DNA from: Escherichia coli
GTDB lineage: Bacteria; Pseudomonadota; Gammaproteobacteria; Enterobacterales; Enterobacteriaceae
Length of the DNA stretch: 64,000 nt
Assembly (NCBI RefSeq): GCF_001677475.2
Contig: NZ_CP015229.1
Direction: 5' to 3' (one strand)
How positions within the stretch are numbered: the stretch's first letter is position 1; each line of letters begins with the position of its first letter. The notes under the pieces are model-generated. The model was not told where the DNA came from. It saw only the letters and a list, made by a program, of their open reading frames with translations, and made no database searches. The translations under genes and the position numbers were made by a program. Below are positions 2,657-25,684 of this stretch, in pieces.

Positions 2657-3181
2657 ATGGCTTTGACAACCATTTCGCCGCATGATGCACAAGAATTAAT
2701 CGCACGCGGCGCAAAGTTAATCGATATTCGTGATGCTGATGAATATCTTCGTGAACATATTCCTGAAGCAGATCTGGCTCCATTATCCGTGCTCGAAAAG
2801 TCAGGTCTTCCGCCTAAATTACGTCGCGAGCAAATTATCTTCCACTGCCAGGCAGGTAAACGCACCAGTAATAACGCCGATAAATTAGCAGCGATTGCCG
2901 CACCCGCAGAAATCTTTTTACTCGAAGATGGGATTGATGGCTGGAAAAAAGCAGGATTGCCAGTTGCGGTAAATAAATCTCAACCCTTGCCGTTAATGCG
3001 CCAGGTGCAGATCGCCGCAGGTGGTTTAATATTAATCGGCGTTGTACTGGGTTATACCGTAAATAGCGGTTTCTTCTTATTAAGCGGCTTTGTTGGTGCC
3101 GGGTTACTGTTTGCAGGAATTAGCGGTTTTTGTGGGATGGCAAGGTTGTTAGATAAGATGCCTTGGAACCAACGAGCTTGA
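2657..3181 (+). CDS. ygaP: Membrane-anchored rhodanese (thiosulfate sulfurtransferase) YgaP
   Basis: 174-aa ORF; rhodanese active-site region FHCQAGKRT; hydrophobic C-terminal tail. Confidence 0.85.
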
Positions 3182-3227
3182 GAAGCGACGCCGGACGCGC
3201 CATAGCAGCGACATCCGGCCTCAGTAA

Positions 3228-3632
3228 TTAGATCAGGAAATCGTCGAGAGATTTACCTTCTGCCAGCGCCTGAGCGATTGGCTTCGGTGTACGGCCCTGA
3301 CCGGTCCAGGTTTTAGTTTCACCGTTAACATCGGTGAATTTATATTTTGCCGGACGCGGCTGGCGTTTTTTACCAGCGCGTGGGGCGGCCGCGGAGCTAT
3401 TACCCAATAACTCTTCCGGGTTAATTCCGTCAGCTTTCATCAGCTCCAGCCAGGTACTAATTTTTTCCTGGCGCTCTGCCAGTTCACGCTGCTGCTGTTC
3501 TTCTTCTTCACGTCTTTCTTTAGTGACAACCCTGAATTTTTCGAGCATTTCTTCAAGAACGTCAATGGAGAATTCGCGAGCCATCGCACGGAGGGTGCGA
3601 ATGTTATTTAAACTTTGTAACATTACGGACAT
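3228..3632 (-). CDS. stpA: H-NS paralogue StpA
   Basis: 134-aa ORF; recognised H-NS-family sequence including C-terminal [16 protein letters not shown]. Confidence 0.9.
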
Positions 3633-4299
3633 AATAAAGAAAACCTTTTAACGCCAAAACAAAAAAGTATTTCGTCGCGTAGTGTAAGCGATCACTTATT
3701 ATATTTCCACAAAATTTAATCTATTTACAGTCCTGCGCGAGATTATTTCAGCTGTTATTTTCTGAAACTCTCAGAATAATTTCAAGATTATATATTAGCC
3801 ATTTTGATGAGTAATTTAGGTTATTGGTGAACAGAGCGGCGCTCTCTGCTCGCTAATTCCGCAAGCCTGACAACACCAAAGTGAATAAAAATGCAATATA
3901 ACAGAATAAAAGAAAACATCCATCACTGGTGCTTTCTGCTGTTAATGTACATTGTCTGGCATAAAAAATGCTGAAAATGACCCGGTCACGACATACACCG
4001 AATTCTCTACGCTTATAGCGTTACCTCACCCCCAAACTTTCATTAGTGAAATTAAAGGCAAGCTAATATCTAATTGATTTAATTGAAAATAAATCATATC
4101 GGCATGTAAAAATCCACAATGTACAAAAAACGCGCCGTTACGGAATATTTTATCTACAAAAACTGACTAAATAAAAATTTTTCACTAATTGATTAGTCAT
4201 AGCCAGCGATATACGCTATGCGAAAATGCAGATGGCAATGAGATCCACTGCTTTCATCTCCATTAACATCCCATTACGCTTTTATTAAGGAGCATTAGC

Positions 4300-4749
4300 A
4301 TGTTCTCACCGCAGTCACGCTTGCGTCATGCAGTTGCAGATACGTTCGCGATGGTTGTTTACTGTTCTGTCGTGAACATGTGTATTGAAGTTTTCCTCTC
4401 CGGAATGAGCTTCGAACAGTCTTTTTATTCCAGATTGGTAGCGATTCCGGTGAACATCTTAATTGCATGGCCATACGGTATGTACCGCGATCTGTTTATG
4501 CGCGCGGCACGCAAAGTTAGCCCGTCGGGCTGGATAAAAAATCTGGCGGATATCCTGGCTTATGTGACGTTCCAGTCACCGGTGTATGTGGCGATCTTGT
4601 TAGTGGTGGGCGCAGACTGGCATCAGATTATGGCGGCGGTCAGTTCAAACATCGTTGTTTCGATGTTGATGGGGGCGGTTTATGGCTACTTCCTCGATTA
4701 TTGCCGCCGACTGTTTAAAGTCAGCCGTTACCAGCAGGTAAAAGCCTGA
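4300..4749 (+). CDS. alaE: L-alanine exporter AlaE
   Basis: 149-aa hydrophobic ORF after the long AT-rich spacer; synteny. Confidence 0.8.
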
Positions 4750-4785
4750 CTCTTCTTTTCGCGACTGGCATCGCCAGTCGCGTCT

Positions 4786-5130
4786 TTAACTGGCTTCGCC
4801 AAATAAACCATTTAAATAACGTTCAAGCGCAACACGCGAACTAAAGCCATGCGGGATACCGTAATGCTCGTGTCGCTCGCCTGCTAAATAGAGCGGAAAT
4901 TGTTGATAATGATCGCAAGTTTTAATATCGGAAGCGGGTTCAGCCAGTGTCGAACTACGTTCTTTTAATGTTGGATGAATTACCAGTGCGGTACGTCCCA
5001 TTCGCGCTTCGCGATTAACATAGACATAATTTTCCCCACGGCGGTAACCATACGCTTTCTGGGTTACCACATCGACAGTAAAACCGACTTTTTCAAGTAC
5101 GCGCGCCACCTCGTCTGGTCGTAAATACAT
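4786..5130 (-). CDS. ygaC: Uncharacterised protein YgaC
   Basis: 114-aa ORF; synteny. Confidence 0.75.
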
Positions 5131-8628: not shown

Positions 8629-9597
<969 letters not shown>

Positions 9598-9952
9598 GGG
9601 TGTTATTTTCAAAAATATCACTACCCGCGACAGGGAAATAATTCCCGCCAAATAGCTTTTTATCACGCAAATATTTTGTGGCGATCTACACTGATACTCT
9701 GTTGCATTATTCGCCTGAAACCACAATATTCAGGCGTTTTTTCGCTATCTTTGACAAAAAATATCAACTTTTCTCGATTTGCTCTCAGCCCTTATATCAC
9801 GGGAAATTCCGGCGATTTGCTCGCATCAATATTCATGCCACATTTGCCATCAGGGGTTGCCTCAGATTCTCAGTATGTTAGGGTAGAAAAAAGTGACTAT
9901 TTCCATTGGGTAATATATCGACATAAACAAATAACAGGAATCTTTCTATTGC

Positions 9953-11155
9953 ATGGCAATTAAATTAGAAATTAAAAATCTTTATAAAATATTTGGTGAG
10001 CATCCACAGCGAGCGTTCAAATATATCGAACAAGGACTTTCAAAAGAACAAATTCTGGAAAAAACTGGGCTATCGCTTGGCGTAAAAGACGCCAGTCTGG
10101 CCATTGAAGAAGGCGAGATATTTGTCATCATGGGATTATCCGGCTCGGGTAAATCCACAATGGTACGCCTTCTCAATCGCCTGATTGAACCCACCCGCGG
10201 GCAAGTGCTGATTGATGGTGTGGATATTGCCAAAATATCCGACGCCGAACTCCGTGAGGTGCGCAGAAAAAAGATTGCGATGGTCTTCCAGTCCTTTGCC
10301 TTAATGCCGCATATGACCGTGCTGGACAATACTGCGTTTGGTATGGAATTGGCCGGAATTAATGCCGAAGAACGCCGGGAAAAAGCCATTGATGCACTGC
10401 GTCAGGTCGGGCTGGAAAATTATGCCCACAGCTACCCGGATGAACTCTCTGGCGGGATGCGTCAACGTGTGGGATTAGCCCGCGCGTTAGCGATTAATCC
10501 GGATATATTATTAATGGACGAAGCCTTCTCGGCGCTCGATCCATTAATTCGTACAGAGATGCAGGATGAGCTGGTAAAATTACAGGCGAAACATCAGCGC
10601 ACCATTGTCTTTATTTCCCACGATCTCGATGAAGCTATGCGTATTGGCGACCGAATTGCCATTATGCAAAATGGTGAAGTGGTGCAGGTTGGTACACCGG
10701 ATGAAATTCTTAATAATCCGGCGAATGATTATGTCCGTACCTTCTTCCGTGGCGTCGATATTAGCCAGGTGTTCAGTGCGAAAGATATTGCCCGTCGTAC
10801 ACCGAACGGCTTAATTCGTAAAACCCCCGGCTTCGGCCCGCGTTCGGCACTGAAATTATTGCAGGATGAAGATCGCGAATATGGCTACGTCATCGAACGC
10901 GGTAATAAGTTTGTCGGCGCTGTGTCTATCGATTCGCTTAAAGCCGCGTTAACGCAGCAGCAAGGTCTTGATGCGGCGCTGATTGATGCGCCGTTAGCGG
11001 TCGATGCACAAACGCCTCTTAGCGAGTTGCTCTCTCATGTCGGACAGGCACCCTGTGCGGTGCCCGTGGTCGACGAGGACCAACAGTATGTCGGCATCAT
11101 TTCGAAAGGAATGCTGCTGCGCGCTTTAGATCGTGAGGGGGTAAATAATGGCTGA
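9953..11155 (+). CDS. proV: Glycine betaine/proline ABC transporter ATPase ProV
   Basis: 400-aa ORF; Walker [13 protein letters not shown] signature [10 protein letters not shown]-terminal CBS-like region. Confidence 0.92.
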
Positions 11156-13267: not shown

Positions 13268-13352
13268 ATTCGGGCGGATAAGGCGTTTTTGCCTCATCCG
13301 CCGTTCTGTGCACAATGCCTGATGCGACGCTGGCGCGTCTTATCATGCCTAC
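13268..13352. repeat. REP/BIME-type palindromic repeats downstream of proX
   Basis: Two palindromic units incl. gcctgatgcgacgctggcgcgtcttatcatgcctaca. Confidence 0.6.
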
Positions 13353-22005: not shown

Positions 22006-22079
22006 GAAAGACGCGCATTTGTTATCATCATCCCTGAATTCAGAGATGAAATTTTGGCCACTCACGAGTGGCCTTTTTC
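22006..22079 (+). ncRNA. micA: MicA (SraD) small regulatory RNA
   Basis: Recognised sequence gaaagacgcgcatttgttatcatcatccctgaattcagagatgaaattttggccactcacgagtggcctttttc with terminal hairpin; between luxS and gshA on the opposite strand. Confidence 0.75.
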
Positions 22080-24917: not shown

Positions 24918-24994
24918 TGGTGCATCCGGGAGGATTCGAACCTCCGACCGCTCGGTTCGTAGCCGAGTACTCTATCCAGCTGAGCTACGGATGC
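24918..24994 (-). tRNA. argQ: tRNA-Arg (ACG), copy 1
   Basis: Reverse complement gives a 77-nt tRNA ending in CCA with recognised tRNA-Arg sequence; symbol assigned by position. Confidence 0.9.
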
Positions 24995-25096
24995 ATCGGG
25001 AAAACTTATTTTACTGCTGATATTGATACCGCTACTAAAGCCATATCAAATAAGAAAATCCATCTTAACCATCATCACTGATGATTACGGAGAATA

Positions 25097-25173
25097 TGGT
25101 GCATCCGGGAGGATTCGAACCTCCGACCGCTCGGTTCGTAGCCGAGTACTCTATCCAGCTGAGCTACGGATGC
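25097..25173 (-). tRNA. argZ: tRNA-Arg (ACG), copy 2
   Basis: Identical 77-nt repeat. Confidence 0.9.
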
Positions 25174-25235
25174 ATCGGGAAATTTATTTTACTGCTGATA
25201 TTGATACCGCTACTAAAGCCATATCAAGTAAGAGA

Positions 25236-25312
25236 TGGTGCATCCGGGAGGATTCGAACCTCCGACCGCTCGGTTCGTAGCCGAGTACTCTATCCAGCTG
25301 AGCTACGGATGC
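25236..25312 (-). tRNA. argY: tRNA-Arg (ACG), copy 3
   Basis: Identical 77-nt repeat. Confidence 0.9.
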
Positions 25313-25374
25313 ATCGGGAAACTTACTTTACTGCAGATTTTTTGATACCGCTACTAAAGCCGTATCAAGTAAGA

Positions 25375-25395
25375 GATGGTGCATCCGGGAGGATT
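25375..25395 (-). pseudogene. Truncated tRNA-Arg fragment (3'-terminal ~21 nt only)
   Basis: gatggtgcatccgggaggatt matches the 3' end of the tRNA-Arg repeat, then diverges into spacer-like sequence. Confidence 0.6.
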
Positions 25396-25511
25396 ACTCG
25401 CCTTGCGGCTCGCCCTTCGGGCCGTTGCTAAAGCAACGTTATCCTTCCTGGTGCTTGCGGCTAGTACCGCCACCTCTTCCACATCTTCATCGCTGAAGAT
25501 TACGGATAATA

Positions 25512-25588
25512 TGGTGCATCCGGGAGGATTCGAACCTCCGACCGCTCGGTTCGTAGCCGAGTACTCTATCCAGCTGAGCTACGGATGC
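25512..25588 (-). tRNA. argV: tRNA-Arg (ACG), copy 4
   Basis: Identical 77-nt repeat. Confidence 0.9.
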
Positions 25589-25591
25589 AAA

Positions 25592-25684
25592 TGGCGGTGA
25601 GGCGGGGATTCGAACCCCGGATGCAGCTTTTGACCGCATACTCCCTTAGCAGGGGAGCGCCTTCAGCCTCTCGGCCACCTCACC
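25592..25684 (-). tRNA. serV: tRNA-Ser (GCU)
   Basis: 93-nt long-variable-arm tRNA; reverse complement matches the tRNA-Ser(GCU) sequence as recalled. Confidence 0.88.

Follow-up and report, generated by a model that had tools for sequence, protein, structure and literature searches.

A probable shared control region with two conserved ends between the divergent stpA and alaE genes of Escherichia coli

Introduction

The promoters of ilvIH, dadAX, oppA and pap are controlled by Lrp through multiple phased sites, with bridging or wrapping of the DNA. Small RNA genes that lie between protein-coding genes, such as that of MicA, are typically well conserved.

The spacer between stpA and alaE is itself already-described regulatory DNA, and binding of H-NS, RNA polymerase and Lrp to it has been published. 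In K-12, genomic SELEX found that the spacer binds the RpoD holoenzyme and carries one or more H-NS sites; the best-scoring promoter proposed from those data on the alaE side was GTGATA-17-TCTAAT (PMC3946193). Expression of stpA is repressed by H-NS and is auto- and cross-regulated by StpA (PMC2814080; PMC4668568). Loss of hns derepresses stpA (PMC2814080; PMC4668568, with reference to Sonden & Uhlin 1996 and Free & Dorman 1997). Transcription of stpA is raised by osmotic and temperature upshift, and Lrp sustains stpA in minimal medium (PMC4668568; PMC2814080).

The role of Lrp was described in a 2023 study that used the stpA-alaE locus as a model and combined ChIP-seq, PalaE-lacZ assays, qRT-PCR of stpA and alaE, and AFM (PMC10127797). 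Lrp gave a double ChIP peak, with one part in the spacer and the other inside ygaP, and removal of the ygaP peak lowered Lrp activation of stpA by more than 5-fold (PMC10127797). As seen by AFM, purified Lrp bridges the stpA-alaE fragment, and leucine abolishes this bridging (PMC10127797). Lrp slightly represses alaE in minimal medium and activates it strongly once leucine, isoleucine and valine are supplied (PMC10127797). An lrp allele was associated with higher alaE expression in a later genetic study (PMC12003319). Two further papers on alaE contain nothing about cis-elements, and we found no published effect of H-NS on this gene. All of this published work on binding and regulation was done in K-12 and other laboratory or clinical strains rather than in the strain analyzed here.

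Results

The spacer is the longest ORF-free and most AT-rich stretch of the window

The window is a 64,000-nucleotide stretch of the E. coli chromosome (NZ_CP015229.1). In it, stpA and alaE have the neighbours ygaV, ygaP, ygaC, ygaM and nrdHIEF, as in MG1655. The StpA and AlaE proteins that it encodes are 100% identical to their K-12 counterparts. The spacer between the two genes (Table 1) is 97.8% identical to that of K-12 and differs in length from the MG1655 spacer (668 bp, at K-12 coordinates 2,798,496-2,799,163) by a single base pair. It is single-copy, and 5419 of the 5426 complete E. coli genomes contain it; in one strain, half of it has been lost through an IS1-associated deletion.

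The GC content of the spacer is far below that of the window as a whole (0.525). The lowest-GC 667-bp stretch of the window lies at 3600-4266 (GC 0.34), and the second-lowest is the nrdF-proV spacer (GC 0.393), which is the proU regulatory region. Tracts of at least four A/T occur at 31.5 per kb in the spacer and at 9.6 per kb in the window, a roughly three-fold difference. Within the spacer, AT-richness peaks in the two conserved promoter modules described below (GC approximately 0.30) and is weaker in the centre. A search for direct, inverted and tandem repeats returned just the short matches usual for AT-rich DNA. The sequence CTAATTGATT is present twice, with 115 bp between the copies.

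Measured as the longest stretch without an ORF of at least 60 aa, the gap spans 648 bp (3652-4299). The runners-up are 287 bp, clipped by the end of the window, and 234 bp, and the other ORF-poor region of the window, at 24.7-26.4 kb, has five tRNA genes inside it. The longest ORFs lying wholly within the spacer encode 41 and 36 aa. A 59-aa antisense ORF (4295-4474) reaches its right end. Neither MG1655 nor any other RefSeq E. coli genome that we inspected carries an annotated feature in the spacer, RNA genes included.

A first-pass annotation, made from the sequence of this DNA, had described the spacer as the longest non-coding stretch of the window, strongly AT-rich with many A/T tracts, and upstream of both divergent genes. 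These descriptions agree with our measurements, the first in the sense of freedom from ORFs of at least 60 aa. Its statement that no ORF of 60 codons or more is present is right for frames contained in the spacer, but a 105-aa ORF antisense to stpA (3334-3651) intrudes by 19 nt. The same annotation regarded the spacer as a typical target of H-NS/StpA silencing. The published H-NS site from SELEX and the repression of stpA bear this out; however, it overlooked Lrp, the best-documented player at this locus.

Table 1. Features of the stpA-alaE region. Positions are those of the window; promoters, leaders and protein-binding sites are predictions.
Feature	Position	Strand	Remarks
stpA	3228-3632	minus	H-NS paralogue gene, left flank of spacer
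stpA-alaE divergent intergenic region	3633-4299	none	667 bp, GC 0.348
Predicted stpA 5' UTR	3633-3675	minus	cross-genus conservation scores 6-9/10 over 3633-3660
stpA Shine-Dalgarno AAGG	3644-3647	minus	within predicted 5' UTR
Predicted stpA core promoter	3681-3709	minus	-35 TGGAAA (3704-3709), 17 bp, -10 TACACT (3681-3686)
Upstream stpA regulatory block	3740-3786	minus	partly conserved across genera
Imperfect palindrome centred on CAGCTG	3740-3763	minus	in upstream stpA block
Promoter-like TTGAAA-17-GAAAAT	3757-3785	minus	in upstream stpA block
Lrp-consensus-like 15-mer	3772-3786	minus	in upstream stpA block
Fast-evolving spacer centre	3820-4064	none	GC approximately 0.40
GC-rich palindrome AGAGCG-G-CGCTCT	3833-3845		E. 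coli only
Hairpin with T-tract	3912-3936	minus	E. coli and Escherichia sp. L004 only; six positions polymorphic within E. coli
Candidate upstream alaE promoter GTGA(A/T)A-17-TCTAAT	4045-4073	plus	proposed from SELEX data
IHF-consensus-like site TATCTAATTGATT	4067-4079	minus	reverse complement of WATCAANNNNTTR, 1 mismatch; conservation 7-9/10
Candidate upstream alaE promoter TTGAAA-19-AAAAAT	4083-4113	plus	from promoter scan
Conserved GTAAAAATCC block	4104-4113	plus	(G/A)AAAAT in other genera
Lrp-consensus-like box ACGGAATATTTTATCTACAAAAA	4140-4162	plus	CAGAGTATTTTATCGACAAAAA in most genera
Predicted alaE core promoter	4168-4217	plus	-35 TTGATT (4189-4194), 17 bp, weak -10 TACGCT (4212-4217)
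A/T-rich UP-like tract TAAATAAAAATTTTTCA	4168-4184	plus	upstream of alaE -35
Dyad CAG-N9-CTA	4205-4219	plus	overlaps alaE -10
Predicted alaE 5' UTR	4224-4299	plus	approximately 75 nt, length near-constant in 45 genomes
20-codon upstream ORF	4226-4288	plus	begins near predicted alaE start, ends inside alaE Shine-Dalgarno
Stem-loop at 5' end of alaE leader	4228-4261	plus	different-sequence hairpins in other Escherichia species
Conserved early-leader motif GATCCACTG	4242-4250	plus	AAAnCACTA in most other genera
alaE Shine-Dalgarno AAGGAG	4287-4292	plus	in predicted 5' UTR
alaE	4300-4749	plus	L-alanine exporter gene, right flank of spacer

Conserved modules at both ends flank an unconserved middle

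Using AlaE as a probe, we collected 80 enterobacterial loci, and a stpA homologue lies divergently upstream of alaE in 58 of them. Spacers were extracted from 47 of these 58 and compared together with that of the window (48 in total). They are 475-789 bp long, with a GC content of 0.31-0.43 against a local background of approximately 0.52. The alignment divides the spacer into three parts: a stpA-side module, an alaE-side module and an unconserved middle. Blocks conserved across genera lie at 3633-3710 and 4065-4260.

Variation within E. coli was examined against K-12 and among 9 diverse strains. All 15 differences between this spacer and that of K-12 fall within 3660-4133, with none in 4134-4299. 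Among the 9 strains, the proportion of variable sites is 1.9% (2 sites) at 3633-3735, 3.6% at 3736-3819, 18.4% at 3820-4064, 12% at 4065-4139 and 3.8% at 4140-4299. Third-codon positions of the neighbouring genes are 3-15% variable in the same set, a comparison to be read with the choice of strains in mind, as they were taken from the low-identity end of a spacer-based ranking and spacer diversity is therefore inflated relative to the genes. This bias leaves the contrast within the spacer untouched. We conclude that the spacer is very probably a bipartite control region shared by the divergent stpA and alaE genes, with a conserved module at each end.

Standard motif scans do not single out the conserved sites

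A standard promoter and terminator scan of the spacer gave counts equal to those in shuffled sequences. Promoter-like hexamers are plentiful on both strands of such AT-rich DNA, and the exact hexamers, start sites and leader lengths given here are predictions. The Lrp consensus YAGHAWATTWTDCTR, at up to 3 mismatches, has 3 matches in the spacer, compared to 2.9 expected in shuffles, and the high-affinity H-NS motif (tCGATAAATT-like) has one 8/10 match, compared to 1.6 expected. Since these Lrp and H-NS counts equal those of shuffles, we did not use the scans as evidence on their own. Instead, we infer the pairing of conserved blocks with proteins from position and conservation only. For both genes we predict a conserved -35/-10 pair with 17-bp spacing (TTGATT-TACGCT for alaE and TGGAAA-TACACT for stpA).

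The alaE-side module is an array of conserved DNA sites

The 235-bp alaE-side module (4065-4299) is conserved in more than 20 genera, and equally so in 19 genomes in which alaE lacks a neighbouring stpA. Because it is retained in those genomes, the module belongs to alaE. At its upstream edge, approximately 150 bp ahead of where alaE transcription is predicted to begin, the IHF-like site keeps a fixed position in 24 genomes, being exact in 10 of the 24 and having one mismatch in another 10. The conserved block at 4104-4113 is possibly an additional protein-binding site, or else the -10 element of a candidate upstream promoter (TTGAAA-19-AAAAAT, with TG). Further downstream, the Lrp-like box is near-invariant in more than 20 genera; it is centred approximately 75 bp before the predicted start and departs from the consensus at 2-4 positions in 21 of 24 genomes.

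Within this array, the sequences AAATAAAAAT, CTAgTTG and CAG..ATA..CTA are invariant or almost so, and the TTG and TAnnCT of the promoter are near-invariant. We place the probable start of alaE transcription at approximately 4224. The published dependence of alaE on Lrp is consistent with a weak -10 that has an activator box nearby on its upstream side. The dyad over the -10 always lies 95-99 nt from the alaE ATG. We also considered this dyad as a hairpin and rejected it, because its inner positions show no covariation and nothing but the outer AG/CT is fixed.

The alaE leader folds unremarkably as a single sequence (z = -1.18). Since the 235-bp block has no conserved RNA structure, its conservation acts at the level of DNA. 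Outside Escherichia, the early-leader motif sits in a C/A-rich stretch; the E. coli leader is not C/A-rich. As far as we could find, the IHF-like site and the early-leader motif appear undescribed.

The stpA-side module contains a conserved promoter-like pair

On the stpA side, in a module that extends from 3633 to approximately 3735, the pattern cTGGAAa...TAcAcT is kept in most genera, and a relaxed promoter scan also lists this pair. A perfect TATAAT (3698-3703) lies within the promoter spacer, only in Escherichia, Salmonella and C. koseri. Transcription of stpA would start at approximately 3675, or at approximately 3691 if TATAAT is used, giving a predicted leader of approximately 40-60 nt. 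The fold of this leader is unremarkable (z = -0.87). In the block further upstream (3740-3786), GTTATTT is common to genera, and 3.6% of sites are variable within E. coli. This block may be an Lrp or H-NS site.

The centre of the spacer evolves rapidly

Within E. coli, no other part of the locus varies as much as the centre (approximately 3820-4064; 18.4%, compared to 2-4% in the flanking modules). Between genera, the centre is unalignable and its length ranges from 140 to 454 bp, and even among Escherichia species its sequence is scrambled outside a few short islands (ATAAAtATGCA, CATAAAAAATGCTGAA and ATTCTCTAC). The median GC content of the centre elsewhere is 0.385, with values up to 0.52. 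In C. koseri and Raoultella it is at the background level of 0.49-0.52, showing that an AT-rich centre is not obligatory. In a crude, home-made wedge model, predicted curvature peaks at approximately 3974 and approximately 4145, both exceeding the 95th percentile for the first 12 kb.

Alternative explanations for the spacer

It is possible, though on balance we doubt it, that the centre is functionless neutral filler, produced by AT-biased mutation under relaxed selection and bound by H-NS only passively. Its polymorphism, at or above that of third-codon positions in the strain set biased as described above, its lack of alignment and its wide length range between genera, the background GC of C. 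koseri and Raoultella, and the IS1-associated loss of half the spacer in one strain are all consistent with this explanation. However, a spacer of at least 475 bp is kept in all 47 genomes with the stpA-alaE pairing, short islands are preserved in Escherichia, the crude model places a curvature peak at approximately 3974, and Lrp bridging requires DNA between its sites. A neutral centre is in any case compatible with a bipartite control region rather than opposed to it. The same hypervariability weighs against an independent sRNA gene, which the first-pass annotation had raised together with a small protein. Such a gene might produce a minus-strand transcript ending at 3912-3936/3903-3911, or an antisense RNA ending at approximately 4220 opposite the alaE leader. 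A relaxed search did find three hairpins followed by T-runs, all on the minus strand, with T-tracts starting at 3911, 3977 and 4226 (dG of -9.0, -6.5 and -13.0 kcal/mol, respectively). Promoter-like hexamers are frequent on either strand, and the hairpin opposite the alaE leader has, by eye, a minus-strand G:U wobble where the plus strand has an A.C mismatch. None of these relaxed candidates is conserved, though, and the hairpin at 3912-3936 is limited and polymorphic in the manner listed in Table 1. Read in the sense direction, the candidate at 4228-4261 is the stem-loop that begins the alaE leader. A standard terminator scan found no terminator inside the spacer. A whole-window Rfam search at gathering thresholds gave no match in the spacer, and a permissive search of 3000-5000 to E = 10 gave only chance-level matches far below gathering (CRISPR-DR63, MIR398, rli43 and others). 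RNA gene annotation is absent here from the inspected RefSeq genomes, and a literature search found no sRNA adjoining stpA or ygaW. We consider an sRNA gene in the spacer very unlikely.

A translated small protein or regulatory uORF is just as improbable. The first-pass annotation had proposed small-ORF and sRNA prediction with conservation analysis as a check, and its suggestion of an unannotated sRNA or small protein is not supported: the spacer has no Rfam match, no conserved structure, no convincing pairing of a promoter with a terminator and no small ORF that has a Shine-Dalgarno sequence or bears marks of purifying selection, and its centre is the most polymorphic part of the locus. Out of 31 small ORFs of at least 10 codons, 0 have a good Shine-Dalgarno sequence; those starting with ATG have none, and a 4-base match occurs just once, before a GTG ORF of 10 codons. 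The strongest candidate, the 20-codon ORF upstream of alaE, is intact only in E. coli, Escherichia sp. L004 and E. albertii, where neither its length nor the position of its stop changes. Leaderless initiation is conceivable, since its ATG coincides with the predicted transcription start, and the overlap of its stop codon (4286-4288) with the AAGGAG of alaE is a geometry that could couple translation. However, a hand count between E. coli and E. albertii gives 11 of 20 identical residues (55%) at 76% nucleotide identity, which indicates no purifying selection. The frame is disrupted in three other Escherichia lineages (L005, L006 and L009) by a stop after 5 codons and a 6-nt deletion, the L009 ORF starts with GTG rather than ATG, and the ATG is missing in Salmonella, Citrobacter, Enterobacter and Klebsiella. 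Chance alone would also produce a 20-codon open frame in about a quarter to a third of cases. We judge this uORF to be probably non-functional as a peptide. It is also very unlikely that most alaE transcription begins at an upstream promoter and that 4080-4299 is a long structured leader RNA, such as an amino-acid riboswitch or attenuator. The SELEX study ranks the GTGATA-17-TCTAAT promoter top on the alaE side (PMC3946193), the conservation of 4065-4260 is unusually high for non-coding DNA, and alaE does respond to amino acids. Against this, the consensus fold of the 235 nt from 24 genomes has 0 compensatory pairs and consists of just a 5-bp hairpin located between the Shine-Dalgarno sequence and the start of the coding sequence (-2.6 kcal/mol in total), and that of the 75-nt leader from 29 sequences contains the same invariant 5 bp with 0 compensatory changes. 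The region has no Rfam match and no plus-strand terminator or attenuator hairpin. The conserved columns, made up of A/T runs and short dyads as is usual in DNA bound by proteins, fit a -35/17 bp/-10 arrangement. The amino-acid response is already accounted for by Lrp (PMC10127797).

Discussion

The spacer has a three-part anatomy, is conserved at its ends and not in its middle, and yields no evidence of an RNA or peptide gene. In the bipartite control region that we favour, the stpA end would consist of a sigma-70 promoter (TGGAAA-17-TACACT, with TATAAT in addition in Escherichia), a leader of approximately 40-60 nt and AT-rich upstream sites. The alaE end would consist of a weak sigma-70 promoter in need of help (TTGATT-17-TACGCT), a UP-like tract, the Lrp-like box approximately 75 bp upstream, more conserved sites reaching to approximately 155 bp upstream, and a leader of approximately 75 nt downstream. 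The two modules would be joined by approximately 250-330 bp that evolve rapidly, are mostly AT-rich and probably have no sequence-specific content. This central linker would be hardly constrained in sequence, if at all, serving either as a platform for spreading and bridging or as neutral filler.

From this arrangement and the published data, the following mechanism can be proposed. Filaments of H-NS and StpA would cover the AT-rich DNA and limit stpA expression, through cross- and auto-repression in a feedback loop between paralogues. In minimal medium, Lrp oligomers on the spacer and on the ygaP site approximately 1 kb away would bridge and activate stpA. Lrp would slightly repress alaE until leucine or alanine alters its assembly and alaE is turned on, with Lrp on the conserved upstream array offsetting the weak alaE promoter. 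It is also conceivable, though unlikely, that the alaE array extends beyond Lrp control: the IHF-like site might bind an architectural factor, and the early-leader motif might receive post-transcriptional input from an sRNA or RNA-binding protein. If true, this would add architectural and post-transcriptional inputs into alanine export.

The spacer resembles a textbook-style long divergent control region, in which nucleoid proteins set the levels of an H-NS paralogue and of a safety-valve exporter of amino acids. Two conserved promoter modules and a fast-evolving linker account for its length. The gap needs no new gene annotation, and it has little significance beyond housekeeping. The exact limits of the conserved alaE array, the IHF-like site and the early-leader motif are mildly new and should be taken as leads rather than findings. 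The limits of the array (4065-4260) are precise enough to steer site-directed work on Lrp, and possibly on IHF.

Compared to AT-rich promoter regions silenced by H-NS/StpA, such as proU, the stpA-alaE spacer is likewise AT-rich non-coding DNA upstream of a sigma-70 promoter. It shares with them a published H-NS site, the increase of stpA in hns mutants and a three-fold density of A/T tracts. It differs in being a core region, vertically inherited across Enterobacteriaceae and not horizontally acquired, and in that the silenced gene encodes the paralogue of the silencer, creating a feedback loop. Furthermore, matches to the high-affinity H-NS motif are no commoner in it than expected by chance. 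The window also contains an intergenic sRNA gene for comparison, that of MicA (22006-22077; Rfam score 83.9 bits). Like such genes, the spacer lies between protein-coding genes and has hairpin and T-run motifs that can be found in it, but it has no match to an Rfam family, its candidate hairpins are not conserved and the DNA around them is the most variable of the locus.

The likeness to the Lrp-controlled promoters of ilvIH, dadAX, oppA and pap lies in the published double peak of Lrp, the leucine-sensitive bridging and the Lrp-dependent regulation at stpA-alaE, as well as in the conserved AT-rich blocks upstream of the weak alaE promoter, one of which is near the Lrp consensus. The stpA-alaE locus differs from these promoters in that one Lrp assembly would serve two divergent genes, with a partner site approximately 1 kb away in the ygaP coding region.

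Variation of the stpA-alaE spacer among E. coli genomes

The spacer between the divergent stpA and alaE genes (3633-4299) varies within the species. When it was compared with all complete RefSeq E. coli genomes, no identical copy was found; the best match was 98.8% identical, and most genomes fell between 95 and 99%. Unlike the spacer, the StpA and AlaE proteins encoded in the window are 100% identical to those of K-12. Divergence of the spacer despite K-12-identical flanking proteins is consistent with the spacer's hypervariable centre.

In one swine isolate, E. coli QL57EC (locus L083), IS1X2 with a neighbouring deletion is present at L083 2843-3919, corresponding to window positions of about 3975-4440. 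What is lost is the spacer's right half, the entire alaE promoter and the AlaE N-terminus, and alaE is annotated as a pseudogene. In this isolate stpA and its promoter are still intact.

Two sequence features lie within the spacer. The palindrome, midway in the AT-rich centre, is restricted to E. coli and the closest relative of E. coli. Among E. coli strains, four positions inside or adjoining it are variable (3831, 3836, 3837 and 3841). No function is suggested for it. The repeated 10-mer, CTAATTGATT, occurs as two copies, each within a block that is kept across genera. The distance between them is exactly 115 bp, which corresponds to about 11 helical turns. The first copy contains the IHF-like site, and the second contains the predicted alaE -35 element.

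Features of the window
Feature	Position	Strand	Description
Palindrome	3833-3845		AGAGCG-G-CGCTCT, perfect, GC-rich, 13 bp
10-mer, copy 1	4070-4079
10-mer, copy 2	4185-4194
nrdF-proV spacer	about 9597-9951		353 bp, upstream of proV
naRNA4/CssrE	13272-13349		Rfam match at gathering level, 69.7 bits
sRNA MicA	22006-22077		Rfam match at gathering level, 83.9 bits
tRNA cluster	24918-25684	minus	four identical tRNA-Arg(ACG), one tRNA-Ser(GCT)

alaE leaders of other genera

Outside Escherichia, the first 30 nt or so past the predicted alaE start are strikingly C/A-rich (e.g. GTCAAACAAACCAACCTAAAGCACTAA), as seen in Enterobacter, Klebsiella, Citrobacter and Kosakonia loci (e.g. L025, L070, L008 and L046). 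The E. coli leader is without this C/A-richness. GcvB targets C/A-rich sequence in the mRNAs of amino-acid transporters, and the leaders outside Escherichia, judged by their composition, appear to be the same kind of sequence.

In Citrobacter amalonaticus, and in no other species, the alaE 5' UTR carries a GC-rich, hairpin-prone insertion (GGCCCCTGAGGGGCGAAGCCC...) of about 130 bp. It separates the conserved leader motif from the Shine-Dalgarno sequence and resembles a small repetitive or mobile element.

RNA genes and AT-rich regions elsewhere in the window

The MicA and naRNA4/CssrE matches are positive controls: where the window holds a known sRNA, it is readily detected. The tRNA cluster explains the window's other ORF-poor region.

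A GC scan of the whole window placed the second lowest-GC stretch at 9509-10175 (GC 0.393), within which the nrdF-proV spacer lies. This spacer is the classical proU regulatory region, which is silenced by H-NS, so that both of the window's most AT-rich spots are known targets of H-NS.
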